From positions 64,001 through 128,000 of IMG/VR virus record IMGVR_UViG_3300027914_001163: a stretch of DNA of 64,000 nucleotides. One strand, 5' to 3'. The DNA comes from a virus (lineage: Duplodnaviria > Caudoviricetes). The position numbers and the translations under genes were made by a program. The notes under the pieces are model-generated. The model worked only from the letters and a program-made list of their open reading frames with translations, was not told the DNA's origin and did no database searches. Of this stretch, positions 29,712 through 58,982 are shown one piece after another (the first letter of the stretch is position 1; each line of letters opens with the position of its first letter).

Positions 29712-30185
29712 ATGCCAGTGATACATACCGAGGAAGATGCTTTTTGTGTTTCGAGCACAATGGATCATAAAACGAAAGTTAAGGAATTGATGCACCATTT
29801 TTCTGCGATAATTTTTGCTCGTGGAGAAATTCATGATAATTCAAAACTGGAAGACCCTGAATTTCCATTGTTTGCAGTGTGGACTCCCAAGTTGGCTGCC
29901 TTGACCTATGGCTCGGAAGAATATAAGCAAGCCCTGGAGCAACTGAAACCGGCACTGGAACATCATTATGCCAACAACAGACATCATCCTGAACATTTTA
30001 AGAATGGCATTAAGGATATGAACCTGATCGACCTGATTGAAATGTTTGTTGACTGGTACTGCGCCTCGAAGCGTCATAACGATGGTAACATCAGGAAGAG
30101 CATCGAGATCAACAAGGGGCGTTTTGGCTTCTCTGATGAGTTGGCGCAGATATTCGAAAATACCATTGAACTATTTGATGAGTGA
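29712..30185 (+). CDS. DUF5662-like HD-related protein
   Basis: HDNSK, HHYANNRHHPEHF, EMFVDW. Confidence 0.7.
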   Translation: MPVIHTEEDAFCVSSTMDHKTKVKELMHHFSAIIFARGEIHDNSKLEDPEFPLFAVWTPKLAALTYGSEEYKQALEQLKPALEHHYANNRHHPEHFKNGIKDMNLIDLIEMFVDWYCASKRHNDGNIRKSIEINKGRFGFSDELAQIFENTIELFDE

Positions 30186-31864
30186 GCGACATGAAAGTAT
30201 TTGTGAAAGGTGTTGGCGAGGAACAACTGGATAAGCGTCACTATGTTTCGGCTGGTGGCGAAGGAACGGTGTATGTCAAGGGAAACACGGCATATAAACT
30301 TTATATTAAGCCAGAGAGATGTATTCATGAAGCCAAGGTCATGGAGTTGGCTCCGCTGACGTTGCCGAACATTATCAAGCCGGAGCACATGATACTTGAT
30401 GCGAAAAATTCTCCTATCGGTTATACGATGCACTTTATCAAGCATACAGTAACGCTTTGCCAATTATTTACCAAGTCATTTAAAGATCGTAATCGTATAG
30501 GCTCCGCTGAGATCGTTGACCTGGTGCTGAAGTTTCGTGCCGGAGTTGATCACTGTCATCAACATAATGTTCTCGTGGTTGATATGAACGAATTGAATTT
30601 CCTGGTAGACAAGAATACGTTTAAGGAAATTTATTTTATAGATGTTGATTCATATCAAACGAAATCATATCCGGCGACAGCGATCATGGATTCAATACGA
30701 GATCGCCACTGTGAAAAATTCGATTCCAATTCTGACTGGTTCTCGTTTGGTATATTAACTTTTCAAATGTTTACCGGTATGCATCCCTATAAAGGAAAGC
30801 ATGACAAATATCTTGATCTTGAAACACGGATGCAGTGTAATGTTTCCGTGCTCAATTCCGCAGTCAGGGTTCCGCCGACGATGATTGATCCAAAATCTGT
30901 GATACCGGATAGTTATTTGTCTTGGTATCGTGAGGTATTTGAAAATGGAAAAAGAATTCCTTTTCCCCTGCGCCCGGACCAAGTGGTGTATATTGCACCG
31001 GTTGCCCAAGTTCTTGTTTCTGGAACGGATATGTTTATTGTGAAAAAGATAATTGAGTTTAAAGGTAATATCATTAACTACAAATATATCAACAACAAAC
31101 AGATGGTACTTACCGATGTTGGTTTGTTTCTGGATGATGTCTTCGATGGTAATGTGGCTCCCTATGCACAGATTGCTGTAACTCCAAAATTTCAGAAAGT
31201 TATTACGGCAATTACTAAAAATGGAAAACTTGGATTATATGATGTGGTAATGGGGAAACATCTTAATGTTAACTTTGATGCCGCAGAAGTTTTTTCATAT
31301 GATGGGAGATTGTATTTCTTGAACAACGAAATGATTATGGAAGTGCAGTTTTCGGAAATATCTCAAAGCAACATGACCGTTGGTATTGTTCCAGTGTGCA
31401 ACGTTCTTCCCAATGCCACGCAGATATTTGAAGGGGTTGTCTTCCAGAATCTTCTTGATATGTATTATGTATCGATCTTTCCCAAGGAAGGAATTCATCA
31501 GCAGATTAAACTTCCAGAGTTGCAAAAATACCGATTGATCGATGCGAAATTTGAAAATAATGTTCTTATGGTATTGGCAGAACAAGCCGGAACATATGAG
31601 AAGTTTATTTTCCATTTTAAACAGGATTATACTTATACTCTCAGGAAAGTTATGTTAGGAAAAATTGCTTCGGATATAAATTTCACTGTTCTGGATACCG
31701 GTCTTGCAATCCAGGCGACCGATTCCGAGGTTGAATTGTTTACGGCGCACCAGGTCAAAACGATCAGCAGCGATACGTTATATCAGACACAATTATTTCA
31801 TCGTGGAACAGAAGTGTTATTTGCTAAAGGGAATGAACTGTATTCCATTACCATGAAGAAGTAA
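30182..31864 (+). CDS. Ser/Thr protein kinase with C-terminal beta-rich domain
   Basis: GGEGTVY, AYKLY, VDMNELNFLV, IDVDSY, DWFSF, HPYKG. Confidence 0.88.
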   Translation: MSDMKVFVKGVGEEQLDKRHYVSAGGEGTVYVKGNTAYKLYIKPERCIHEAKVMELAPLTLPNIIKPEHMILDAKNSPIGYTMHFIKHTVTLCQLFTKSFKDRNRIGSAEIVDLVLKFRAGVDHCHQHNVLVVDMNELNFLVDKNTFKEIYFIDVDSYQTKSYPATAIMDSIRDRHCEKFDSNSDWFSFGILTFQMFTGMHPYKGKHDKYLDLETRMQCNVSVLNSAVRVPPTMIDPKSVIPDSYLSWYREVFENGKRIPFPLRPDQVVYIAPVAQVLVSGTDMFIVKKIIEFKGNIINYKYINNKQMVLTDVGLFLDDVFDGNVAPYAQIAVTPKFQKVITAITKNGKLGLYDVVMGKHLNVNFDAAEVFSYDGRLYFLNNEMIMEVQFSEISQSNMTVGIVPVCNVLPNATQIFEGVVFQNLLDMYYVSIFPKEGIHQQIKLPELQKYRLIDAKFENNVLMVLAEQAGTYEKFIFHFKQDYTYTLRKVMLGKIASDINFTVLDTGLAIQATDSEVELFTAHQVKTISSDTLYQTQLFHRGTEVLFAKGNELYSITMKK

Positions 31865-33118
31865 TGAAAAAAATAATAAATGTAAAATATATCTCGCAAC
31901 GAGATACCAATAGTTCATCCTTTGCAACATGCGCTGCGATGATGATTCAGTTTATTAAGGATAAGGAGGAAGAGGAACATGTCACTGGAAAAAATATCAA
32001 ATGAAAAAACAATTCAATATTGGAATCGGTATGAAGAACTAAAAAGAAGATTTTTAGATCAGGGAGCCATTATTCAAAATCCAGATATGGAACTTTCCCT
32101 GGATGATTTGAAACAGTTCGTTGTAAGAACAAATAAATTTATTGAAGATTTTAAACAATGGAGACAGGAGGTTGTTAATTCACTTCTGGTAGGAGATATA
32201 GAATGAAATGCGCAATTGTTATGGCAGATGGTCTTAAACAGATCATGTTCTCACCGGAGAACGATATGGAGCGCATGGCTCTCAAGATGATTACGCCGGA
32301 GGACAATATATCTATTGAAATAAAAGAAGGAACGTTTTTCGAAGGAGATATGCCGAAGTCTGCCTTGGGGTATCGTGTTGAAAAATGTCAAGGCGGTTAT
32401 CATCGTGCCTATCGAGATTCTGATTCACTGATGTTGGTTTTACGGAGAAAATCACAGGAGGAAATGTAAATGAAACCGTTTGGAAAAAGAACAAAAAAAT
32501 CAAAAGTCGTATCTGAGTTGATACTTCATATTAAGGTTTATGATAACAATGAAGGAGCGACTGTAGAAGTAGAAAGAAAAAAAATGTCAATTGGAGAATC
32601 TGTTGGCTTGTTGGAATTTGCAAAAACAAAAATGATGTTGCAGGAAATGTAATGGCTGACATCAGCATGTGCTTTTTTAAATCGTGCGCTTCAAAAATGA
32701 AGTGCTATCGGTATACGGCCATTACTGGACAATGGCAATCTTTTATGTCCTTTGAAGAGACATATACTGAAAAGAAAAAAAAGTGCAAAGACTTCAGGAG
32801 CAATCGTTATTATTTTGACCGGATTAAATTGTGGAATAAACAGCGAGAGGAATGGATGGCGAGTGTACAAAAAATAAGTATTAAAGAATTTATGACAGTT
32901 AAATTTTCCGGCCAGGAAACTTCAGATAGATGTGAACAATGCGGAAGTAAAATAATTAAATCTGAAAATGGAAAATGGTGCTCAAATGACGATTGTACAT
33001 GGAGTGATAACGACTTTTTTGAGCATTTTTTGACCCAACAAAAAAAGAAAAAAAAATAATTTTTGCACGAATTTTTTTCATAAAAAGTTGACAAATTATC
33101 ATACCTTACGATAGAAAT

Positions 33119-33155
33119 CTTGCAACAGGGTAAAGATTTGAATGTTGGTTACAAT
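33119..33155 (+). repeat. solitary copy of the CRISPR repeat
   Basis: CTTGCAACAGGGTAAAGATTTGAATGTTGGTTACAAT: first 32 nt identical to the array repeat, 34/37 overall. Confidence 0.92.
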
Positions 33156-33399
33156 GGGAGGAAACGATAATGTTAAAAGGATTGTTACACGGTCTTCTGG
33201 TCGGTGCTATTATAGCACTCATTTTGACTGCGCTGTGTTGCCAGACTCAAAAAGAGAAACCATCCGGACCTTTTAAGACTGCGGAATGGAAAGACTGTTT
33301 TGAGGAATGCAAATCTTCGCTTCCAAAGAATCTGTCCATTTCAGATTTTGATAATGGCGAGATTAAAAAAATGAATCCAGATGAACTCTGTGTTCGTTT

Positions 33400-34191
33400 T
33401 TGCACACAGGCATTATATCATCGTCGGGGTATTCAGTGAGAATCATTTCAGATTTTCATGATTATTACGATAATGTTCAGTCATACGGACAGGATCGTTC
33501 TCTGGTATATTTACGAAAAGAAAAGGTGATCGAGAACTTTGACACCAGAGAACTTCCTTCCCTGGCTGAATTGTTTGAGAAATTTTCATGGCTTCATACG
33601 CATCATCTTGACAGCCTGTATAGCATCAGGCCGTGTTTAATAGGTTTCTGCGGTAAGTGGTATCCATATATTGATTTCAGTTCCGATTATGAAAAGACCG
33701 CTCACGAAACCGCTTTCAATGCGTATGATGTATTGCAGTTTTTGCAATCTCCTGAACATTTCAAGAAGGAAATGGTTGAGAATTTTCTTGAGGTTGAAAA
33801 AAAGCGCACCAAGTTTTATGGCAAGGTTCAAAGACGGAAAACTAAATATCGGCTTCATTTTACATTTGATGATCTGGATGATTTTTTCAAAAAAAACCAT
33901 ATCATAGAAAAAGAACTTGACTTTTTTTTCAGACACCGATGTCCTATTTTTATCATTGAGAGTTTGGATAAAAGAAGGATAGAATATAATTTGATTTTGC
34001 ATCCGAACCTTTTTAAGAGGAATTTTCAAAGAGAGATTGACCCTTATACCGCCTTCCAGGAATTGAGCATGTTTATCTCAGGAAGGCTTGGAGTTGGGGA
34101 GCCGGTCACTGTGAATATCAGCAACGAGGCTATGATTGAAAAGAAAGGATTCGATAAGTGGTCATTCAGAACAATGCCAACCAAAAAATGA
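33400..34191 (+). CDS. hypothetical phage protein (start probably near 33437)
   Basis: Long ORF. Confidence 0.6.
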   Translation: MHTGIISSSGYSVRIISDFHDYYDNVQSYGQDRSLVYLRKEKVIENFDTRELPSLAELFEKFSWLHTHHLDSLYSIRPCLIGFCGKWYPYIDFSSDYEKTAHETAFNAYDVLQFLQSPEHFKKEMVENFLEVEKKRTKFYGKVQRRKTKYRLHFTFDDLDDFFKKNHIIEKELDFFFRHRCPIFIIESLDKRRIEYNLILHPNLFKRNFQREIDPYTAFQELSMFISGRLGVGEPVTVNISNEAMIEKKGFDKWSFRTMPTKK

Positions 34192-35020
34192 GAAATGCGA
34201 ACACGAAGATGGTGGTTGGTGCAGGAATGAGAAAAGGTGCAAGCATCGTCATGTAGCATATTCGATTGGACCTCTCGGTGGTATCAGTCGTAAAAATAAA
34301 GGATACGTTTGTGAGTTGGCACTATGAAATATTTAATTTTTACAATGATGATCGGTTTGATGCTTGGCGGTTGTTATCCTGAACAAAGAGACGTTCAGGA
34401 TGAAGTATATACGTTGGCAAAAAAGGCGTATGAGTTGGGTTACAGACAATCATGCGCTGACAATAATAAACCCTGCGATCAATATGAAGAGCGTCAGGCA
34501 AAATTTAATACAATGATGGAGCGATAATATGATAGCGTTAGTAATTGGTTCGTTTATTCTTGCAATTATCTGTGCCGGTCCTTTTATTGAGAAAGACAGC
34601 CCGATTATGAATTACATGTCTGTGCCGGTGTTTTTGATTGTGCTTGGTTTTGGTGTTCTGATGTCAACAGGAGGATGCTATCAAGCCAGCATTGTTGAGG
34701 TTGAAGAAATGAAGGCTCAACAGATCAACATACTATCCAATTACCGGACACTGGCGCAACAACTGAATCAAGTCGCCGTGGTGAAAACAAATGGTGATAA
34801 AATCCTGGTTGATCTTCCAAACGCATACCAGAGCACCAACGCTTCCAAAGCTGCTGAAAGTTGGATTGATTCTGCCAATAAATTTAATAAAGATTTGGCT
34901 CATGAGATCGGTATTCGTAAAATGAATTGGATGGGGAAACTGTGGTATGGTTGGCGGTGTCCTCTTGATAAGGAATTACGGTACATTGAAATAAAAGAAC
35001 TGGTTGAAAGAAAATAACAT

Positions 35021-35092
35021 TGAGCGGTAGCCAAGCGGTAAGGCATCGGGTTTTGGTCTCGACATCCGAGGGTTCGAATCCTTCCCGCTCAG
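35021..35092 (+). tRNA. tRNA-Gln(TTG)
   Basis: Cloverleaf; TGAGCGG/CCGCTCA acceptor stem; TTCGAAT T-loop; no CCA. Confidence 0.9.
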
Positions 35093-35647
35093 ATCGGAAA
35101 AGAAATGAATATAGATTTTAAAAAATTATCACAGTCAGAAGGATACAAGAGGTTAAAGGCTTCGGTATTGTATGATTGCTATGAGCGTGGTAAGAAGAAG
35201 TGTTTTCGAACAACCGGATGCGATAAAAAACCTGGATGTTCTCATCGGTATTGCGATCAGTTCAAGTATGTCATTGACTTGGTTCGAAAATGCGCACATC
35301 AGACAGGGCTTGATCCTGTTGATATATTGAATGGTTGGGAGAAAGACAGGACGTGTTGGTATATGAATTTTTACCAAGCATGTTATGAGAAAAGATTATT
35401 TAGTCTATCGGTAGAAAACGCCGTGGCCTTCAATGGCGCAGTAGACACATCTGTAAGTTCAACACTCGACGGAGATATGGTTCAGAAGTAGGAGCGTTGT
35501 CTGAAAATGAACCGGAGGCTCTTGATTGGTGTGGGGATTCTGGCAAACAACGATAACTCCAGAGTTGAAACATCTTGAGTAGACTCGTCCGAAGACCTGG
35601 ACGGCTAACGTGATGACAGTTTGTTGAACAAGGACTCGATGTTATGT

Positions 35648-35680
35648 CTTGCAACAGGGTTAAGATTTTTTTGTTGTAAT
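35648..35680 (+). repeat. degenerate solitary CRISPR repeat copy
   Basis: CTTGCAACAGGGTTAAGATTT (20/21 to repeat nt 1-21), then shortened, ending GTTGTAAT. Confidence 0.75.
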
Positions 35681-35711
35681 AATGGTTCATCGGAATAAAA
35701 AACCATTTTAA

Positions 35712-35786
35712 CGGGGTGTAGCGCAGTCCGGTCAGCGCACTTGATTTGGGTTCAAGTTGTCGAGAGTTCGAATCTCTCCACCCCGA
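35712..35786 (+). tRNA. tRNA-Pro(TGG)
   Basis: CGGGGTG/CACCCCG acceptor; CTTGA-TTTGGGT-TCAAG anticodon arm. Confidence 0.9.
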
Positions 35787-35795
35787 AATTGTTTT

Positions 35796-35867
35796 GCGGA
35801 TGTAACCCAACGGTAGGGCATATGATTTCCAATCATATCATTGTGCGTTCGAGTCGCATCATCCGCT
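35796..35867 (+). tRNA. tRNA-Gly(TCC)
   Basis: GCGGATG/CATCCGC acceptor; TATGA-TTTCCAA-TCATA anticodon arm. Confidence 0.88.
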
Positions 35868-35870
35868 CAT

Positions 35871-35943
35871 GGGGTTGTCGTCTAATTGGTTAGGACAGCG
35901 GTTTTTCGAACCGTCAACCAGAGTTCAAATCTCTGCAACCCTA
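35871..35943 (+). tRNA. tRNA-Glu(TTC)
   Basis: GGGGTTG/CAACCCT acceptor; GCGGT-TTTTCGA-ACCGT anticodon arm. Confidence 0.88.
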
Positions 35944-35954
35944 ATGCTTAGAAT

Positions 35955-36345
35955 ATGCACCGGAAGCCGGAGAGTTGTAATTCCAAAGGAAGCCGTTTGA
36001 TCAACGGTGGATGGGACTCGGTGATGGAGCCGGTATTACAGTTTTAAGCCGTATACGATAGTGTCTACCTTCGACGTGGAAGGCTCGACTTGGAGAGAGT
36101 AAACATTCCGATCCAAGGAGCCAACGTTGGCTGCCGGTGGGTCTCGATTGGAGAACCAGACTCGGTAAGTGCGTTGGACATCGGAAAAGGGTATCCAGGT
36201 TTAAAATTAATGCAGGGATTGAGGCGACTCCCGGTTCTTTTAGATTATAAGAAAATCTCCAATTACTGAACCGAAAGCCTTTACCTCAACGTAGTAAATT
36301 GAGGATTATCGTATCCAGGTTTTTGTGAGGCTTCCTGGTAAATAA
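35955..36345 (+). ncRNA. candidate large structured ncRNA (unassigned family)
   Basis: No convincing ORF, end-to-end pairing, multiple nested helices and a pseudoknot-like pairing. Confidence 0.6.
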
Positions 36346-36358
36346 AAAGCCAAGGTAT

Positions 36359-36435
36359 AGCGGGGTAGACCAGTTGGTAAGTCGGCTGGCTCATAACCAG
36401 TGTCAATATCGTCGGTTCGAACCCGACCCCCGCAA
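36359..36435 (+). tRNA. tRNA-Met(CAT), possibly initiator-like
   Basis: CAT anticodon; 1:72 mismatch; GCGGGG/CCCCGC. Confidence 0.85.
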
Positions 36436-36455
36436 ATTTTAAAAAGAGATAGTAA

Positions 36456-37064
36456 ATGAACCGTAGCGAAGCAGGAAAATTAGGAGCATTAAAATCTAAA
36501 CCTATATTGCAAAAACGTTTTGATAATATCAAAAAACAATATTATCATAATCCAAAAGTTTGTAAAAGTTGTAAAACAATTTTGCAATATCATCAACGAG
36601 ATAATACATTTTGTACTAAATCTTGTGCTGCTCAATTTTATAATGTTAAAAGAGGAAAAAAAACTAAAACTGAAAAGTATTGTTTAAATTGTGGAAAATT
36701 AGTAAAAGTTAAATATTGTAATAATACTTGTCGGGCTGAATACAAATGGAAACAATTATGTATTGAAATAGAAAATAAGAAACAATTTCCTTATAACAAA
36801 AACACTAATGATACAAACAGAAAAATAGTTAAAAAATATTTAACAGAAAAATTTGGAGATAAGTGTTTTATTTGTGGAATTACTAAATGGAATAATAAAG
36901 ATTTAATTAAGATTATAGATCATATTGACGGCGATACGCATAATCATAAAGTAGAAAATTTTAGATTGGTATGTAGTAATTGTGATAGTCAATTGGAAAC
37001 TTATAAATCTAAAAATAAAAAAGGAAAACGTTCTTGGAGAAAAAAATACGCCTCTGTAGTTTAA
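36456..37064 (+). CDS. HNH homing endonuclease with zinc-binding repeats
   Basis: CxxC repeats; IDHIDGDTHNHKVENFRLVCSNC; very AT-rich. Confidence 0.88.
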   Translation: MNRSEAGKLGALKSKPILQKRFDNIKKQYYHNPKVCKSCKTILQYHQRDNTFCTKSCAAQFYNVKRGKKTKTEKYCLNCGKLVKVKYCNNTCRAEYKWKQLCIEIENKKQFPYNKNTNDTNRKIVKKYLTEKFGDKCFICGITKWNNKDLIKIIDHIDGDTHNHKVENFRLVCSNCDSQLETYKSKNKKGKRSWRKKYASVV

Positions 37065-37122
37065 ATGGATAGAACGACTGATTTGTAATCAGTAAATTTC
37101 GGATCGTACCCGAATGGAGGCT
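37050..37122 (+). tRNA. tRNA-Thr(TGT)
   Basis: GCCTCTG/TGGAGGC acceptor; ACTGA-TTTGTAA-TCAGT anticodon arm; atypical ATCGTAC T-loop. Confidence 0.8.
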
Positions 37123-37126
37123 ATAT

Positions 37127-37200
37127 TCTGCGGTAGCTCAGTTGGTAGTAGCAATTGACTGTTAATCAATGGGTCGGAAGTTCGAATCTTCCCCGCAGAG
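37127..37200 (+). tRNA. tRNA-Asn(GTT)
   Basis: TCTGCGG/CCGCAGA acceptor; ATTGA-CTGTTAA-TCAAT anticodon arm. Confidence 0.92.
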
Positions 37201-37205
37201 CATAA

Positions 37206-37278
37206 AGGGGTTTGCGAGTAGTGGTAGCCGGTCGGTCTCCAAAACCGTACAGCACGGGTTCGAATCCTGTAGCCCCTG
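37206..37278 (+). tRNA. tRNA-Trp(CCA)
   Basis: AGGGGTT/AGCCCCT acceptor; CGGT-CTCCAAA-ACCG anticodon arm. Confidence 0.82.
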
Positions 37279-39743
37279 AAAAACAACAAGGAGCGAGTAT
37301 ATGAATGAAACAGCGTGGACTTTATTTCTTCTTTATATTTTTCCATTAGCCCTGTGTCAAATTATCAGAATTGAGTTATCTGACATCACCAGGTACTCAA
37401 TCGGTTGGGTTGACGATGAACCAAAACTCGATGAATCTCAAAAGCGTTCATTGCGGGAATTCTTCGGGCTTATCCAACATCCTGCCTTTTCCATTGCTAT
37501 CTTTATGCCCATGCTCAATCTTTTATTCTTGGGAACATTGGCATTTATGTGGTATAAGTGCCGGAGAAAGAAATGAGGTTGTTCCATCGTAATAAACGTC
37601 CTGAAACTCCCAAGCCATCATTTCATCCGGCAGCTCAAGAAGCACGTTTGAAATTGGCGGAACACCAAGCAAGTTGTTGGGATAAAAGTATGTCATCGAT
37701 TGATATACAAGAAGTCAATTCTGAAGTTTATTATATGGAAAGATTTGATTTTCCTATTTCATATGAAGATCAATCGCCAACGCAGTGTATTGGAGAGGTA
37801 AAAAGGCAATACTTTGATTTTATTATAACGTTGAGCGACACGGCTATGTTGTTGAAAGCACCACAAGTCAGTCTGGATGAAATGATTCGACATTCACTTC
37901 CGCCACGTTATCATAATGCCGAGTTGCAAATTGTTCATTTGAATCAACAAGACTATATGAATCGGTTGCGTAAATTCGGCGTGAGAGTAATTGGTTATAA
38001 AGATCACGGTCATATCGAACAGTCTATTGTGAAAAAAGTTGTTAAAAAGATTGCCATACCTGAATATTGTAATGGGTGTGGCAGTCCTGAAATTATAAAA
38101 GGCAAGTGTCAACATTGCGGAAGGAGTTATGTATGATGTTAGATTGTTTTAGCCGTTCGGTTGATCAAAAAAAGAAAAAAAATCATATAGATTACGGTTT
38201 TGCTGATTTGCTTGTTGGCAAAAAAATTGTTCACGCAGAAGGAAAGATGGATTATGGCGGCAATGTGCTTCCAGATCAGTTTTTGACATTGACATTTGAT
38301 ACTGGCGATGTTCTTAATATTAAATTTGAGAGAGTGAGATATTCTTTTAAAAACAAAAAAGAACGTATTAAAGAAATCCATACTGAGATAATAAAAATCA
38401 GTCACGAGCATGAACGTCTGTGCAAGGAATTAAATAAATTATTATAAAGGAGAATGAGATGAAAAAGTTTTTTGTTATAATGATTATCTGCCTGGTGGGA
38501 ATGGTGTCATGCAAGTTTGACAAAACGACATTGTATGCGCCAGGGGATGTAGCGCAAATCGAGGCTGACCGTCTCGATAATATTCTTGAGGAATCACGTA
38601 AATGTGTTAAAATGAATATGACTTACGTGGTTGAAAGAATTCAGCATGAAAATGGAGATTCATATAATGTTTTCTGCACAGGGAAACTACAGGAATCTCA
38701 AAAATGCAATTGTAAATGTAAATAAGGAGAACGCCATGAACGAACAAGAAAAGAAGAAAAAAGACGAAGAGGAAGAAGCAGAGAGGAGAAGGAGGCAGCG
38801 ACACACCGATGATATGCTGACTGATATAATCAATCCGGCAAATCCTTTAAGCCCTCTGAATCCAATTAACACAATCAACACGTTGCTATAAGGAGCCAGA
38901 CAATGGGAAAAAATCCGACTGAAGAAAAAAACCAGAATAAGAAAGTGGACGTTAACGCTCCCAAGAATACATTGTTCATTACGCACTACATCAAGAAGAA
39001 TGGCAATGTTGGCATGAGAAAACAATTCAAAAAGGTGTAACTATGCATGGGAATAAACCTCGTGAGATCATGGTGTTTGAAGTCTTTAGGCTTGAAGATT
39101 ATATAATTGAAAAGATCAAAAAGGCTTTAACACCATACGACCCGAAAAATAAACCTGGTTCTTATTACCGTGAAACTGATGATAAGGGAATGGTAACGGA
39201 CAGATACTTTTCGGTTGATGCCGGAAACGGAAGTAGTATGTATGATCTGGATGATCTATATTATTATTCTCCAACACGAAAAGATTTGGTTTATGTTGAA
39301 GAAGAACTTGAGGTTCTGGACACAATTAACAAGGCAACTGATTTGCTACTTCGTGTTGTGGAGCATGGAGAGTGGCTTGAAGAAGTCATTAGCAACATTG
39401 GTATTTCTGATCTTGCTTTCGACATGATGCCGGAGTTGCGTAAGCGATATGATTTCGTTTTTCTGGTTAACAATCAGGATACTCGAATTCATATATCTCC
39501 GATGTATATATCCGAAAAAATTTATACGGTATGGGAATTCTGGTCTTCCTATGATGCATACAACGGAGAGTACGATAGCGGTGAAGACTTTGTTGGCATT
39601 TTCGACCTGTACAGTATTTTCCAGAAGGACAACAGGAATGGATAGTAACTCATTCGGAACAAACGCTGACCTTTTTTGTAAAAGTTGTGGCGAGATTGAT
39701 TATTCATCTCGTGATCATTGTAGATTCTGTGGAGCGCAAAGAA

Positions 39744-40100
39744 ATGAAGGAACTTCTGTTCTCAGTAACAAAAAAAGATTTGGATATTCAATTCTACAAA
39801 TCTTCAGGAAAGGGCGGTCAAAACCGGAACAAACGTGAGACTGCCGTGCGTATTGTTCATAAGGACAGCGGGGTTACGGTAGTCTGCGCCGATGAACGAA
39901 ATCAACATCAAAATCTCATGGTTGCATTTCGAAGACTGTGCGATCATCCAAAATTCAAATCCTGGTTGCACATTGAAGCTGCCAGGAAAATGAGAGATCA
40001 AAGTGAAATAAAACGCCAGATCGAAAAACAGGTTGATGAAGATATGGCGGAGAAAAATTTAAAAGTTGAATATTATGAGCCAGAGGGGGAAGAGGCATGA
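39744..40100 (+). CDS. stand-alone RF-1-domain peptidyl-tRNA hydrolase (ArfB/PrfH-like)
   Basis: SSGKGGQNRNKRETAVRIVH...ERNQHQN. Confidence 0.88.
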   Translation: MKELLFSVTKKDLDIQFYKSSGKGGQNRNKRETAVRIVHKDSGVTVVCADERNQHQNLMVAFRRLCDHPKFKSWLHIEAARKMRDQSEIKRQIEKQVDEDMAEKNLKVEYYEPEGEEA

Positions 40101-41416
40101 GTTACCAAGCAATTATCGGAGAATTAAAAAACGTTCGCAAGCATTCAAACGCTGATCGTCTTCAGTTGGCAACTATTTACGGTTGCCAGGTTGTTGTTGA
40201 TCTGAGTGCAAAAGACAACGACAAGGTGATCTATTTTCCCACTGACGGTCAACTCTCAGAGGAATATTGCGCAACCAATAATCTGATCGGAAAAGTCGAT
40301 CCTGAAACCGGTGAGCGCAGCGGTGGATATTTCGACCACAAGCGTAAAGTTCGTGCTCAGAAATTTTGTGGAGAAAAGTCTGACGGTTTCGTTATGCCTC
40401 TTGAATCCGTGGCGTTTACCGGTTACAACATTTCCAAATTCAAAGTGGGAGATCAGTTTGATAACCTGAACGGTGTTGAAATATGCCGGAAGTACATCAC
40501 CAAGAAAACAAGGATGCAGGGAAGCGGTCATAAAAATATGGCACGGCGCATCAAGAAACACTACAAGATGTTCAAGGAGCATATCGACACTGAACAACTG
40601 GCGTATCACATCGGAAGGATTAAAGCCGGTTCTCTGATTTTCTTTTCTGAGAAAGTACACGGAACCAGCGCACGTACCGGCCATGTTCAAGTAGTGTCAG
40701 AACTGCCCAAGTGGAAAAAGATCGTTAATAAAATTGCTCCGATATTTCATGAGAAGTCGGAATGGCAGTACGTGTCAGGAACCAGGCGTGTGATTCTTGA
40801 TAACTTCAACGATCCTGCGAAACAAGGATTCTACGGAACCAATGATTTCAGGAAAGTATGGCATGATGTTTTCCTGGGCAACCTGAGAAAAGGTGAAACG
40901 GTCTATTATGAAATCGTCGGTTGGGTATCAGAAAATACTCCGGTCATGTCGAAGTGTGACAACAAGAAACTCAAGGACAAAGAGTTCCTGAAGATATACG
41001 GTGATGAAACTGTTTTCAAATATGGATGCCTAAATGGAACATCTGACATCTACGTGTATCGTATTACCATGACCAATGAAGACGGATATACAGTTGAGTA
41101 TCCTTGGAGCGCAATGATCGAGCGGTGTAAAGAACTTGGAGTTAAGCCGGTCGTTGAGCTGCACGAACCATATTTCTACGATGGCAATCAAGATACCCTG
41201 ATGAAACTGGCAGAGGAATTGTATGACGGTCCATCCACGATTGACTCTTCTCATATCAGGGAAGGGGTTGTATGCCGTGTGGAGAATGGACTGAACTACG
41301 AAGCCTACAAACACAAGAATTTTATTTTTAAAGTTCTTGAGGGTATCATCAAGGAAAATGATGACGCTGTTGATATGGAAGAAGCCGAAAGTTATCCAGA
41401 AGAGGAAACAGCATGA
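40097..41416 (+). CDS. ATP-dependent RNA ligase with N-terminal OB-like domain (DRB0094-like)
   Basis: HSNADRL, EKVHGTS, YYEIVG, REGVV, YKHKN. Confidence 0.85.
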   Translation: MSYQAIIGELKNVRKHSNADRLQLATIYGCQVVVDLSAKDNDKVIYFPTDGQLSEEYCATNNLIGKVDPETGERSGGYFDHKRKVRAQKFCGEKSDGFVMPLESVAFTGYNISKFKVGDQFDNLNGVEICRKYITKKTRMQGSGHKNMARRIKKHYKMFKEHIDTEQLAYHIGRIKAGSLIFFSEKVHGTSARTGHVQVVSELPKWKKIVNKIAPIFHEKSEWQYVSGTRRVILDNFNDPAKQGFYGTNDFRKVWHDVFLGNLRKGETVYYEIVGWVSENTPVMSKCDNKKLKDKEFLKIYGDETVFKYGCLNGTSDIYVYRITMTNEDGYTVEYPWSAMIERCKELGVKPVVELHEPYFYDGNQDTLMKLAEELYDGPSTIDSSHIREGVVCRVENGLNYEAYKHKNFIFKVLEGIIKENDDAVDMEEAESYPEEETA

Positions 41417-41720
41417 AAATAAATATTATTGATAAATCGAGAAACAAGAGATCGAAAGATATAACTCTTAAAGACGGAATGATTTTTGTGCATCTGGAAG
41501 AATCAGAGGCGATTAATCTGATTCGTTCACTCAGTACACAAATATCCAAACGTGATCCAAACAGCGAACGTCTTGAAAGTTATACTCAGGAAGGAACGTA
41601 TTTCTCCATTGCGGTTACTGATTTTCGAATGTCTCAAATGGAATATGATCATCAGCAACGTAAACGTGAACTATATAATAGCGTTGATGATCAAATAAAA
41701 AAAATAAAAGGAGAGAGAGG

Positions 41721-42635
41721 ATGATAAAAGTTATATTTACCAAAGGAATTATCGCATCTGGAAAGACGACATGGGCGAAGCAATTTGTAAAAGATAATCA
41801 GAAATATAAACGAGTCAGCCGTGATGATCTTCGACATATGCTGTCATCGTATACGTTCACTAATGACAATGAGAATATTGTAACTCAGGTTGAACGTGAT
41901 ACTATTAAACAACTTCTGCTCATGGGATACAATCTCGTAATCGATAAACAGAATCTCAACCAACAAGATTTCGCCAACGATAAAAGGTTCATTTTGGATT
42001 TGGTTGATTGGGAGGACACGGTGGAATTCGAGGTTAAAGAATTTCCGATTACCTTATATCAGGCAATTCTCCGTGATAAGGAACGTGAATTTCAAATAGG
42101 TGAAGCAGTCATCACGAAAACCTGGAAGAGATACGAGAAAGATTTACTGGATATGCTTGAGAGAGCGGAAACTGCGACATATCCATTTGACCCTGCGCTT
42201 CCTGGTTGTGTGGTGTGTGATATTGACGGAACACTGGCTATTCGTGGTGATCGTAGTCCGTTTGATTTTTCGAAAGTCGGAGAAGATAAACTCAATAAGC
42301 CGGTTGCTCAACTTCTGGAAAAACTGTGCATCGGGAGAAATCTTGGACAGGGGATAGAAGGTCCGTATGCTATAATTTTTTCGGGACGTGACGATTCGTG
42401 CATGGAAGAAACTATCAATTGGCTCAAAAAACACAATGTATTTTTTGACGAACTGTATATGCGCAAGACCGGTGATAAAAGAAAAGATTCAATTGTAAAA
42501 CGAGAATTGTTTGACAATCATGTTGCCGGTAAATATAATTGTCTGTACTGGATTGATGACCGCCGCCAGGTTATTGATATGGTTCGAAACGATTTGCGAA
42601 TAACGTGCCTGGACGTTGCCGGACACGATTTTTAA
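41721..42635 (+). CDS. polynucleotide 5'-kinase/3'-phosphatase (T4 PseT-like)
   Basis: GIIASGKTT, SRDDLR; CDIDGTLA, SGR, IDDR. Confidence 0.92.
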   Translation: MIKVIFTKGIIASGKTTWAKQFVKDNQKYKRVSRDDLRHMLSSYTFTNDNENIVTQVERDTIKQLLLMGYNLVIDKQNLNQQDFANDKRFILDLVDWEDTVEFEVKEFPITLYQAILRDKEREFQIGEAVITKTWKRYEKDLLDMLERAETATYPFDPALPGCVVCDIDGTLAIRGDRSPFDFSKVGEDKLNKPVAQLLEKLCIGRNLGQGIEGPYAIIFSGRDDSCMEETINWLKKHNVFFDELYMRKTGDKRKDSIVKRELFDNHVAGKYNCLYWIDDRRQVIDMVRNDLRITCLDVAGHDF

Positions 42636-42917
42636 TAGGAGAATACTATGAAAAATTATTACAAGAAAGAGAAACTGGTCCGGGGTGACGTTGTTAAACA
42701 CAAGGAATACGGCAAGGGTGTTGTTGCTGAATATTGCGACGATGGCCGGTTTATCCAGGTGCGGTTCCAGAAAGAGCCTCCCAAGCCAACGAACTACAAA
42801 TTCAGTGCCAATCCGTTCGTGGTTCCCGTTGAAACACTGGAAAAAATACGCTTTAAAAAGGAAACAAAAGTGGTCGATCCGGTGGCCAGTGAACCCGTTA
42901 TAGGATAAAAAAAATTA

Positions 42918-42975
42918 TTTTTTTGCACGAATTTTTTCCAAAAGAGTTGACAAATTATCATACTCTTTGTATATT
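42918..42975 (+). promoter_or_regulatory. phage promoter with upstream TTTTGCACGAATTTT box
   Basis: TTGACA(42947)-17nt-TATATT; same box near 17090 and 33060. Confidence 0.7.
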
Positions 42976-44370
42976 GTATAAAGACGATAAGGAGAGTGTG
43001 ATATGGCAGCGGAAGAGATTCTTGAAGAGATAATCCATGACAACGAGCCGATGGAATCAAAGGCTGAAAGGAAGAAAATATCTCAACGGCAGAAGCAGAT
43101 TGAAAAGTCTGCTCGTGCTCGTGAGATGAACGAATTGAACGAGGAAGCCCAACGCCTCTCATTGGAAATAATGATACTGAGAGGAAACGGCAAAAAAGGA
43201 TCGCCGGAACACTTGGCACTTCGGGAAAAACTTCATGCTGCTCATGATCAACGTCTGCAACTCGGATGGAGCAGAATGGAGGAATAATATGCTGATACTT
43301 TTAGGAATCGTAATTATGATTTACGCTATTCTTAAAGGGAATGGCGTATGGGGCTTTATAGCCCTGATAATTCTTTTAGCGTTGATTTGCAAATAAGGAG
43401 GGAGTGATGGCTATCAGTTTCAAATGCAGTCGATGCGGAAAAGTTGTTACCGGCAGGGACGAATGTGATGCCGAAGTAAAATTCGATAATCACAAATGCT
43501 CTGTAAAGATCACGAAAGATACTCCGCTGTTTCTCGTGAAGTTGTCAGCATGTCAAAATCCTGATCATGCTGAGAAACAAAATCTTCCGAAGCCTACCTC
43601 AAAAGTTGTTCTCAGTTACAAGGAAGCGTCTGAGGCATGTCGGGCATTTATCAATGAGTATGACCTCGGAGCGGGAAACTGGAAAGGCGGACAAATCTTC
43701 AATCAAGGCAATACGCAAGTGGCTTATGTGTCCTATAATGGAAAAGTATGGGACATGCAGAATAAAGAAATAACCATGTAAGGAGTGTGGAAATGAAATC
43801 GTTTAAAATCGGAAAAGTCTATTCCTTCGCTTACGATTCTCAAAGTGGCAAACCGTCAACGCCGATAGAAGACCCGATCTACTGCCGGATGAGCGAGGCC
43901 GAGTCAAAGAAACTTGAAGAAGAACTTCTGTATTCAGCGGATAAGCGCAAAGCCGATTTCGAAGATCGCAAAAGCCGTTACGCCATTATTTTCAAGATGG
44001 CCAAAGAACTCGACCGTATGAAGAAAAAGCGTCAAGCCAAAGAGATACGCCAGAAGGATGCCGAGGAAGTAAATCTCGAACGCAAACTGACCGCCCTGAA
44101 AAACATATACTTTCGCAAAGAGAAGCCTGAACAACTTCCGTATATCAAAGCCAGAAGCCTGTTCTATCGTCAGGGAGCCAAAGAAAAGCGAGACTCCCAT
44201 ATTCGCCCTGTATGCCGGAAAAAAGATCGGAGACAACGGCAAGATTAGCCACCTGTGGTACGTTATATCCACAGTGAAAGTCTCCAAGAAGCGGATTGAA
44301 ACAGCCATGAAACAATATCTGGCGTTTGACGATTGATATTTATCAAGGGATTAAAAATACTCATCATTTG

Positions 44371-57118: not shown

Positions 57119-57129
57119 ATAGTTGTTGA

Positions 57130-57378
57130 CTTATTATAGGGTAAATATTTGAATGTTGGTTATAACCTTGAAAGGATTTACAAGCCTGGATTCAAATATC
57201 TTGCAACAGGGTAAAGATTTGAATGTTGGTTGTAACTATTCGCTATTCGCGATTCGCGAATAGCGATAAACTTGCAACAGGGTAAAGATTTGAATGTTGG
57301 TTGTAACTATACAGGAGAACTCACTCGATGAAAAAAACAGTCTTGCAACAGGGTAAAGATTTGAATGTTGGTTGTAAC
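57130..57378 (+). CRISPR. CRISPR array: 4 x 37-nt repeats, 3 spacers (33, 34, 34 nt)
   Basis: CTTGCAACAGGGTAAAGATTTGAATGTTGGTTGTAAC at 57200, 57271, 57342; degenerate copy at 57130. Confidence 0.95.
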
Positions 57379-57410: not shown

Positions 57411-57440
57411 TTGACAAAAATGGCTTTAATAAACTATTAT
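57411..57440 (+). promoter_or_regulatory. promoter for tracr-omegaRNA/iscB
   Basis: TTGACA-18nt-TATTAT. Confidence 0.6.
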
Positions 57441-57446
57441 CTTTAC

Positions 57447-57780
57447 AGTTGTTCCGCTAACCATAAGCGGTGTTCGAAAACCGGTAGGTTAGCGGAAGTT
57501 GCAACCAACATTCAAATCTTTACCCTGTCCTCTACGGCAAGAGGATATTCCAAAGTAACATTTGGGAAAATGCAGATTAGGGGGCTTAAAAGAAATTTTA
57601 TGCAGAAGTTTGAAGCAAGCGTTAAAGTAACACCAGTGGATACTCCTCTCGTCCACTGCTCTGTAAATTCTCATGTAAGAAAAGAGAATGATCTTTGCCG
57701 TTGTCATGAGAATATAGTACCTACTTCAAACAACCCCGAAGAGGCTCTACCTCAACATAAAGAGGAGCAGAAGTCGAGAC
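57447..57780 (+). ncRNA. omegaRNA-type scaffold carrying a CRISPR anti-repeat (tracrRNA-like)
   Basis: 5' hairpin 57452-57497; anti-repeat 57498-57528; GATTAGGGGGC; helices GTTTGAAG/CTTCAAAC, CAGTGGA/TCCACTG, TTCTCATG/CATGAGAA; directly upstream of iscB. Confidence 0.85.
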
Positions 57781-57788
57781 TATCTGCT

Positions 57789-58982
57789 ATGGTTTATGTA
57801 ATCAATATGCGTGGTAATCCGTTGATGCCATGCAGTTGTCGAAAGGCAAGAGTGCTTTTAAAAAACAAAAAAGCAAAAGTAGCACAACGGTCTCCATTTA
57901 CAATTCAACTGCTTTATGCAACAGGAGAAACCACGGAACCAATAACGTTAGGATTTGATCCGGGTTATGCTCATGATGGTTTTTCAGCCAGGACTGCAAC
58001 TTGTGAATTAATTTCAGGAGAGTTGGAACACGAAAACGGAATGTCCAAGAGGCTACAAGAACGTAGTATGTATCGTCGCAACAGAAGAAGCAGATTGTGG
58101 CATAGACCTCCCCGATGGAGAAATAGAACAGCATCGAAAAAAGAAGGATGGCTTCCTCCTTCTACACAACGCAGATTAAATACTCATGCATCTTTGATTA
58201 AAAAAATAACAAGAATATTACCTGTTACTGATCTTATTATTGAAATAGCAAAATTCGATATTCAAAAAATTGAAAATCCAGAAATTGAAGGGATGCAATA
58301 TCAACAAGGTTCCCTATATCAATATAGAAATAGGATTGCATTTTTAATAGCACGAGAGCATGGCAAGTGTCAGTATTGCCATAAAGAATATAATAAAAAC
58401 GATGGTTGGAGACTGCACCATATATGGGGAAAATCCAAAGATCGTTCTCAAGATTGGGCATTGGTTCACGAATCATGCCACAAAAAATTGCACTTGAATA
58501 AAGAAGAAGGTATTTTACAAAAAGCAAAAAGCAAAAGTTATAAAAATGCAACATATATGAATGTTGTTCGCAACCGAATAAAACAATTATATCCAATGGC
58601 TCAATTCACATATGGCTATATCACATTTCAAAATAGAGTAGATTTACAATTACCGAAAACACATTATAATGACGCTTTTGTAATATCGGGCGGGACAAAT
58701 CAAGAGCGTATCAAACCTTTTAATATTATACAAAAGAAAAAAAACAATCGCTGTCTTCAAATAAATAGGCAAGGATACAAACCAAGTATAAGAAGAAAAA
58801 GATATAAAATTCAACCTAAAGATAGTGTGTGGATTGAAGGCAAGGAATATATTTCCAAAGGATGCCAATCTTACGGAAAATATGTATGTGTTATTGGATA
58901 TAAAAAGAAAGTAATATCTATAGATAAAATTGAAAAATATTTTAATGCTAAAACATTAAGATGGGATTTTTTATCCGCTTAA
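57789..58982 (+). CDS. iscB: IscB RNA-guided endonuclease (about 397 aa)
   Basis: MVYV..PLMP, RuvC-I GFDPG, Arg-rich bridge helix, WLPPS, RuvC-II IEIAKFD, HNH CQYC..HHI..CH, RuvC-III THYNDAF. Confidence 0.95.
   Translation: MVYVINMRGNPLMPCSCRKARVLLKNKKAKVAQRSPFTIQLLYATGETTEPITLGFDPGYAHDGFSARTATCELISGELEHENGMSKRLQERSMYRRNRRSRLWHRPPRWRNRTASKKEGWLPPSTQRRLNTHASLIKKITRILPVTDLIIEIAKFDIQKIENPEIEGMQYQQGSLYQYRNRIAFLIAREHGKCQYCHKEYNKNDGWRLHHIWGKSKDRSQDWALVHESCHKKLHLNKEEGILQKAKSKSYKNATYMNVVRNRIKQLYPMAQFTYGYITFQNRVDLQLPKTHYNDAFVISGGTNQERIKPFNIIQKKKNNRCLQINRQGYKPSIRRKRYKIQPKDSVWIEGKEYISKGCQSYGKYVCVIGYKKKVISIDKIEKYFNAKTLRWDFLSA

Follow-up and report, generated by a model that had tools for sequence, protein, structure and literature searches.

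A solitary CRISPR repeat at a gene junction in a phage with its own CRISPR-associated IscB is probably a stray or selfish guide unit

Introduction

CRISPR-associated IscB systems are regarded as intermediates between transposon-encoded omega systems and Cas9, and to our knowledge it is not known how guide units multiply or move in them. In Francisella novicida, the Cas9 scaRNA is a solitary degenerate repeat with a fixed guide, which lies in or beside the CRISPR-Cas locus and partly matches the promoter that is repressed.

The guides of IscB normally come from read-through of a co-oriented upstream gene and are encoded in the flank (Meers et al., 2023, 10.1101/2023.03.14.532601). The CRISPR-associated form with an array and an anti-repeat, DelIscB, is an active nuclease that uses 16-nt guides (PMC12660989). 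Guides of Cas9 can also be derived from mRNAs, in which pairing at the anti-repeat's 3' end is required and long extensions on both sides are tolerated (PMC8224270). The RNA anti-CRISPRs termed Racrs are small non-coding RNAs that mimic host repeats and have no cas association (PMC10651486).

Here we describe a single copy of a CRISPR repeat in a phage genome that also encodes the matching nuclease and helper RNA, and for this one repeat unit an occupied site and an empty site are both visible. Like the non-canonical crRNAs (ncrRNAs) of Campylobacter jejuni Cas9 (Jiao et al., 2021, PMC8224270), it is a repeat-like stretch in sense orientation, presumably transcribed inside an mRNA, far from the CRISPR locus, with predicted anti-repeat pairing that is most extensive at the 3' end. 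However, the C. jejuni examples show fortuitous partial complementarity and serve a bacterial Cas9, whereas here a near-perfect unit (34/37) appears to have been inserted whole and the predicted effector is a phage IscB. With the Racrs (Camara-Wilpert et al., 2023, PMC10651486) it shares the form of a single CRISPR repeat in a phage genome near a promoter-like sequence, but it matches the array of the phage itself, has its cognate iscB in the same genome, and runs into a Shine-Dalgarno (SD) sequence and an ORF; mimicry of a host repeat was not found in the collection genome_contigs.

The IscB elements of IS200/IS605 transposons (Meers et al., 2023) offer a further parallel, in that the guide is taken from the 5' flank of the constant RNA part by co-oriented read-through, and an insertion-less allele would be cut and repaired with a copy of the insertion, although homing is hypothetical in our case. 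In contrast to these elements, only the 37-nt crRNA-repeat half is present at the site, there are no TnpA or transposon ends, and scaffold and nuclease would have to be supplied in trans from a locus 24 kb off. The locus resembles DelIscB (Altae-Tran et al., 2021, as described in PMC12660989) in having an array and an anti-repeat within a non-coding RNA upstream of iscB, but the available part of PMC12660989 describes no solitary repeat outside the locus, and the unit reported here is phage-borne. As far as the available part of 10.1101/2024.12.27.630466 goes, the crlRNA/CreA RNAs are likewise solitary degenerate repeats with a fixed guide, a resident effector and a non-immune role; they lie in or beside a CRISPR-Cas locus and partly match the promoter that is repressed, whereas no such match was found in the phage genome.

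Sequences and samples

We analyzed a 64,000-nt stretch of DNA, here called the window, which corresponds to positions 64001-128000 of a 191,433-bp IMG/VR virus record with a completeness estimate of 83%. The G+C content of the genome is 38%, and the genes around the solitary repeat lie nearly all on the + strand. Searching phage records with window positions 32000-36000 gave matches to tRNA genes only. Four DNA runs were compared over positions 30000-44000, with thin and fragmentary contig cover near 33.1 kb; one of them, X2, is a wastewater metagenome that carries a relative at about 95% identity. Contigs L010 (1603 bp) and L022 are both short metagenome contigs of the NCBI assembly GCA_020047475.1. 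The genome_contigs collection holds one genome per bacterial or archaeal species.

Results

The phage-borne IscB-CRISPR system

Judged by its predicted parts (IscB, array, anti-repeat and HEARO-like scaffold), the parent system belongs with CRISPR-associated IscB of the DelIscB kind and is carried by a phage. Its features are as follows:

57200-57378, + strand: CRISPR array with three identical 37-nt repeats, two 34-nt spacers and a 33-nt spacer ahead of the first repeat
57130-57166, + strand: degenerate first array repeat, overlapping a possible array promoter, TTGACT-18-TTGAAT
57411-57440, + strand: promoter-like site of the tracr/omega RNA, TTGACA-18-TATTAT (11/12)
57498-57528, + strand: 31-nt anti-repeat with complementarity to nt 7-37 of the repeat (perfect over 27 nt, one G-U)
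57516-57750, + strand: HEARO/omegaRNA-like scaffold over the full length of model RF02033 (60.9 bits, under the Rfam gathering score of 83; E 5e-12)
57789-58982, + strand: iscB, 397 aa (Pfam RRXRR 1.8e-57, HNH 2.5e-4)

Counted with its degenerate repeat, the whole array spans 57130-57378 and has spacers of 33, 34 and 34 nt. The degenerate repeat may supply the -10 TTGAAT of the array promoter (57125-57154); TTGAAT occurs in every repeat. Spacer 1 (57237-57270) is a near-perfect palindrome (TATTCGCTATTCGCGA / TCGCGAATAGCGATA), which is unusual for a spacer, and no target was found for it.

A protein search returned more than 7000 relatives of the iscB product, the closest distinct ones being 55-62% identical and located in other large phage contigs, and an exact-pattern search for IscB relatives in viral_contigs gave none. 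The scaffold aligns with the omegaRNAs of IscB relatives. The phage relatives have ordinary omegaRNAs beginning GTCAAyyAC and no arrays, and they are therefore uninformative on solitary repeats. In three contigs with such relatives (L012, L013 and L016), the ORF upstream of the omegaRNA extends into it and stops within its first hairpins (L012:2380-2440, L016:1480-1515, L013:2400-2457); the stop codon in L012 and L016 is the TAA of the hairpin loop (CCCTAAAGGG, GGCTAAAGCC).

A solitary copy of the array repeat

An earlier sequence-only reading of this DNA had reported a lone copy of the array repeat about 24 kb from the array and directly ahead of a GGGAGG ribosome-binding site. The copy, its distance from the array and its neighbor were all found as described:

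33119-33155, + strand: solitary CRISPR repeat unit (32/32 exact, 34/37 overall)
33156-33161, + strand: SD sequence GGGAGG of an 89-aa ORF, directly 3' of the repeat
33170-33439, + strand: 89-aa ORF with its ATG at 33170, an N-terminal hydrophobic segment and no Pfam family

Positions 33119-33150 are identical to the first 32 nt of the 37-nt array repeat CTTGCAACAGGGTAAAGATTTGAATGTTGGTTGTAAC, an exact match that occurs four times in the window and in none of 100 shuffles. The three mismatches, at repeat positions 33, 34 and 37, all fall within the last five bases (P 0.0013 under random placement). A profile search of the whole genome recovered the array repeats, the anti-repeat, the degenerate first repeat, the copy at 33119 and one weak copy, and nothing else; the solitary unit is the only full copy outside the array in the 191-kb genome (nhmmer E 3.6e-12). 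It lies on the same strand as all neighboring ORFs. The same solitary repeat is present in independent contigs from other samples (L009/L011 and L010), and is therefore real rather than an assembly artefact.

An array would have at least two regularly spaced repeats, whereas this is a single unit and the next repeat-like unit is decayed and 2.5 kb off. No omegaRNA scaffold or transposon ends were found at the site, where the 37-nt repeat stands alone, and the tracr scaffold is single-copy in the genome. The repeat shows no hairpin of its own (z 0.29). We found no terminator-like site between the upstream ORF and the repeat, and no terminator after it, the SD sequence and the ORF coming directly. 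For the 89-aa ORF, a word-based search returned the ORF itself only and the full HMMER search returned 10 distant homologs; such homologs in other phages overlap their upstream gene without a repeat.

The sequence-only reading had offered, among three options, that the unit acts as a solitary-repeat RNA anti-CRISPR, which in the manner of a Racr would be a decoy that soaks up the IscB or tracr RNA of a competing phage or host and thereby protects this genome. In favor of it, solitary repeat units that viruses carry behind promoters are known to act as inhibitors (PMC10651486). Nevertheless, we consider this the weakest of the three options and very unlikely, since the cognate nuclease, array and tracr RNA are encoded in the same genome and no bacterial array with the repeat core was found among the species-representative genomes. 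In genome_contigs, a 20-nt core gave 0 matches and a 17-nt core gave 97 single chance matches and no array; a 24-nt core had no match in viral_contigs, and the 20-nt core gave two chance matches within coding sequence in metagenome_contigs. This absence from viral, metagenome and bacterial contigs argues against mimicry of a host repeat. Also against a decoy, no stand-alone small RNA is predicted, given that an SD sequence and an ORF follow in place of a terminator, and that the repeat lacks a hairpin.

The promoter cassette upstream of the repeat

Upstream of the solitary repeat lie two elements of a promoter module:

33061-33075, + strand: upstream promoter element TTTTGCACGAATTTT, part of a repeated early-promoter cassette
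33087-33104, + strand: conserved 18-mer GTTGACAAATTATCATAC, which contains the -35 TTGACA at 33088-33093

Exact copies of TTTTGCACGAATTTT occur at nine places in the genome, five of them followed by the 18-mer, and the module TTTTGCACGAATTTT-N11/12-GTTGACAAATTATCATAC accordingly has five copies, including the one at 42921/42946 and three outside the window. This agrees with the earlier statements that the promoter copy is shared with a site near 42920 and that its -10 region differs. In the four sibling modules, TAnnTT (TATATT, TACATT, TACCTT and TATATT) stands exactly 17 nt after TTGACA while the surrounding bases differ, whereas the corresponding bases before the solitary repeat are ATAGAA, or TAGAAA one base on, so that A-11 or T-7 is missing in every register. 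A sigma-70 consensus scan did not call this copy as a promoter. The sequence-only reading placed the repeat inside a phage promoter, and the module is indeed real, but judged by its missing common -10 and by contig L010, which carries the repeat without the promoter, this context is secondary and probably crippled.

Three candidates were rejected. A Bacteroidota-type promoter was discarded as the module fits TTGACA-17-TAnnTT; a usable internal promoter in the solitary repeat was discarded as no -35 lies at the proper distance from TTGAAT; and a solo guide targeting the sibling promoters was discarded as only 6 distal nt are in common. The TTTTGCACGAATTTT sites at 33061, 42921 and 17090 of the window, and at 159344(-), 163370(-), 175423(+) and 187295/187327 of the genome, lie upstream of early-type promoters. 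The element forms an inverted pair once, GCACGAA...TTCGTGC (genome 187295-187327), which hints that a regulator binds there. The TTTTGCACGAATTTT cassettes are also places where contigs of other samples break off, one of them (L018) stopping at 33081.

The residual promoter bears on a second explanation, namely that transcription starts at about 33123-33126 and the mRNA begins with the repeat, forming a leader without a guide that pairs with the tracr/omega RNA. Such pairing might regulate the translation or stability of the 89-aa ORF message, where RNase III could cleave, or it might titrate tracr RNA and IscB off the array crRNAs and act as a timing device. Consistent with this, the -35 is perfect, the upstream element is retained, complementarity begins at 33125, where the predicted +1 also falls, and the leader would be similar in length to those of the four sibling promoters. 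In addition, the repeat abuts GGGAGG, and the predicted duplex is strong and ends 1 nt before the SD sequence. These points must be set against the defective -10 and the negative scan, and against L010, which has the repeat and the SD sequence without a promoter, so that the repeat did not arise as a leader. Furthermore, no other leader in the genome was found to be complementary to the anti-repeat by profile search, and the homologs of the ORF need no such leader. On balance we regard a guide-less leader as unlikely.

Filled and empty sites at the gene junction

Between the promoter module and the repeat lies a remnant of another gene:

33108-33118, + strand: ACGATAGAAAT, 11 nt left over from the 3' end of a 3D-domain gene; the match to L010 begins at 33108

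Contig L010 is 99.8% identical to the window over 33108-34329 and unrelated upstream of it. In that upstream stretch L010 contains the last part of a 3D-domain gene (PF06725, E 1.9e-5, profile positions 4-71 of 72). L010 carries the same repeat, the same 11-nt flank and the same SD sequence. Its 3D ORF runs in frame through the repeat, for which this is the only open frame, and comes to its stop in the TAATG where the 89-aa ORF begins. The relic ACGATAGAAAT reads as the codons T-I-E-I, and the 3D domain in L010 ends in ...T-I-E-I-L; the same 11 nt form the repeat-proximal part of the would-be guide. The 3D protein of L010 is 45% identical to the one beside the IscB relative in L016, where the gene lies directly downstream of iscB (L016:1532-3428; this IscB is the second-closest relative, 61% identical). 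The position of a 3D gene by iscB in L016 and by the repeat in L010 may be a coincidence or a preferred neighborhood.

Contig L022 has a 3D gene 63% identical to that of L010. The next ORF there, 94 aa long, is a homolog of the 89-aa ORF (57% over 67 aa, tblastx 2e-26); the two genes overlap at ATATGA, and the repeat is absent. The junction in L022 reads ...CAGAGCATAAAAA|GGAGTAAAATATG, with which the L010 junction aligns as ...CAGACGATAGAAA|TCTTGCAAC...ACAATGG|GAGGAAACGATAATG. Relative to L022, L010 has a net gain of about 39 nt that holds the whole repeat, while a similar C-terminal tail of the 3D protein and a similarly placed SD sequence are kept (GGAG at the empty site, GGGAGG at the filled one). 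L023 likewise lacks the repeat, and its homolog of the 89-aa ORF (49%) overlaps the gene upstream. As the genes in L022 overlap without the repeat, we conclude that the solitary repeat was inserted as a discrete piece of about 39 nt, and given the arrangement in L010, that of the window is derived from an L010-like one. It is unlikely that L010 is a chimera, in view of its continuous ORF and the 11-nt shared flank.

In the history that we propose, one repeat unit (about 39 nt) would have been inserted between ancestrally overlapping genes for a 3D-domain protein and a small membrane protein. Later recombination would have replaced the 3D gene by other genes and an early-promoter cassette, cut at its -10, and 11 nt of the 3D gene, the repeat, the SD sequence and the ORF would have remained. 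We hold this origin, a single unit inserted at an ancestral gene junction and later joined to a truncated promoter, to be likely, reading it as we do from short metagenome contigs. The earlier interpretation is thereby changed in part: its pairing premise and its strand hold, whereas the promoter becomes secondary and the repeat a unit insertion into a gene junction, as seen from L010, L022 and L023. To that interpretation the present analysis adds the crippled promoter copy, the filled site in L010, the empty site in L022 and a second, decayed copy. Rather than belonging to a promoter by design, the solitary copy is probably an additional guide unit, stray or selfish.

A second, decayed unit

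The weak copy in the profile search lies downstream of the first:

35648-35680, + strand: second solitary repeat unit, decayed, 32 nt upstream of a tRNA-Pro gene

The profile match covers 35648-35668 (E 0.0023). A gapped alignment to the full array repeat gave 30 matches, 2 mismatches and 4 gap positions, with a score of 40 compared to a best background score of 29 over 10,936 genome windows. Its predicted duplex with the anti-repeat is weak (-24.3 kcal/mol). A contig of run X2 skips or replaces 37 nt (35646-35682), which coincides with the second unit within 2 nt.

That this second unit is decayed and polymorphic speaks for the possibility that the solitary repeat is an inert scar, copied into the junction once and without a selected role, its pairing with the tracr RNA being incidental. 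The scar could have formed when, in the course of an IscB attack or afterwards, a protospacer recombined with an array spacer and the TAM was destroyed (an escape event), or through an illegitimate exchange of another kind with an array. In staphylococci, Varble et al. (2019) reportedly saw phages and CRISPR loci undergo spacer-protospacer recombination, and we count this in favor of a scar. The same goes for the truncation of the adjoining promoter at its -10 and the lack of a target in the searches described below. The filled alleles (window, L009/L011 and L010) are 99.8-100% identical to each other, and conservation is therefore uninformative on selection; they are too alike to show constraint. 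On the other hand, the unit is a perfect 32-nt copy, whereas the terminal repeat of the array itself has 6 mismatches over 37 nt. All of its differences lie in the part that is dispensable for pairing, its orientation is sense, and it outlasted a recombination that removed everything upstream to within 11 nt. We consider an inert scar possible, and nearly as likely as the guide function discussed below. As a scar only, the unit would still document, down to a single repeat, that a phage genome recombined with a CRISPR array, and it would warn that a repeat behind a promoter in a phage need not be a Racr.

Pairing with the anti-repeat and a possible guide function

[quoted passage not shown] Its energy is -45.2 kcal/mol, compared to -53.3 kcal/mol for the array repeats and -36.7 kcal/mol for the degenerate first repeat. 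The bases downstream of the would-be guide at the solitary site are the repeat bases that follow every array spacer.

In the reading that we tentatively prefer, the flank upstream of the orphan repeat would serve the phage's own IscB as a non-canonical guide, possibly with homing into, or exclusion of, repeat-less alleles. The unit has the sense orientation of the early genes around it, which form a co-directional block, and no terminator stands upstream, so that it would be transcribed within an mRNA. The guide-proximal part of the repeat, made up of the first 32 nt of the unit, would pair with the 3' part of the anti-repeat in the tracr/omega RNA made from 57.4 kb, and the 16-20 nt of upstream flank (...ACC..ACGATAGAAAT, the old end of the 3D gene) would be loaded into IscB as a non-canonical guide. 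The phage's own copy would be spared, as in the array, because the repeat occupies the place of the TAM. Insertion-less alleles in co-infecting relatives would be cut, at ...ACCAGACGATAGAAAT joined to the downstream sequence of the empty site, and repair from the filled allele would copy the repeat, which would amount to homing or marker exclusion. Pairing of the tracr RNA beside the SD sequence, with possible cleavage by RNase III, would be a side effect on the 89-aa ORF.

Several observations point to such a guide. The repeat is close to identical with the array repeat and unique outside the array, and the parent system with its anti-repeat, scaffold and IscB is encoded in the same genome. 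The 26-bp predicted pairing takes in the anti-repeat's 3' end, and all differences are confined to the distal 5 nt. Insertion of a unit is seen from L010, L022 and L023, and run X2 either lacks the second, decayed unit or has other sequence in its place. Moreover, no terminator-like site lies upstream, guides of IscB being normally read-through products of the flank, and CRISPR-associated IscB with an array and an anti-repeat is active elsewhere (DelIscB, PMC12660989).

The search for targets did not favor a guide. The sequence-only reading had proposed looking for a target of the upstream flank, and none was found in the phage genome or in viral contigs. Within the genome, no site other than its own matched the flank at up to 2 mismatches over 16 nt, and at up to 4 mismatches over 20 nt there was a single 16/20 match, which lies some 47 kb upstream of the window on the - strand and which we do not find convincing. 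The 19-mer of the flank had no match in viral contigs; a 14-base pattern gave at least 118 chance matches there, and none of those listed lies beside a 3D gene or a homolog of the ORF. Likewise, neither viral_contigs nor the phage genome itself gave a protospacer for any of the three array spacers. Empty sites are seen in distant sequences only (63% and 49% protein identity), which the guide would not match. Finally, the near identity of the filled alleles carries no information on selection, and the decay of the second unit shows that such units can fail to be kept.

Should IscB take up the orphan unit, the mRNA-derived guides of Cas9 would have a natural counterpart that is encoded in a genome, and phages would have a means, independent of the array, to aim a nuclease at rival phages. 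The transposon logic in which the guide is the flank and the target is the empty site would then be linked to CRISPR repeats. A stronger version, in which the single 37-nt repeat is a minimal selfish homing element that spreads by repair and drags neighboring genes along, seems doubtful to us. Were homing to take place, it would be one way in which CRISPR-like guide units seed outside arrays in the IscB lineage toward Cas9.

Other variation around the locus

Contigs L018-L021, which come from the same population, are identical to the window or stop before the repeat. Two further contigs were set aside as probably derived from the array or another promoter copy, namely one of X4 with an extra G at 33127 and one of X2 at 33077. 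Compared to window positions 34330-34517, L010 (1451-1454) lacks 188 nt that hold a 67-aa ORF (34324-34527), another small indel between near-identical phages. About 1.3 kb upstream of the solitary repeat, positions 30182-31864 (L009:22-1695) encode a protein that matches Pkinase (PF00069), with a length of 557 aa as called in L009 and 560 aa as listed for the window ORF.
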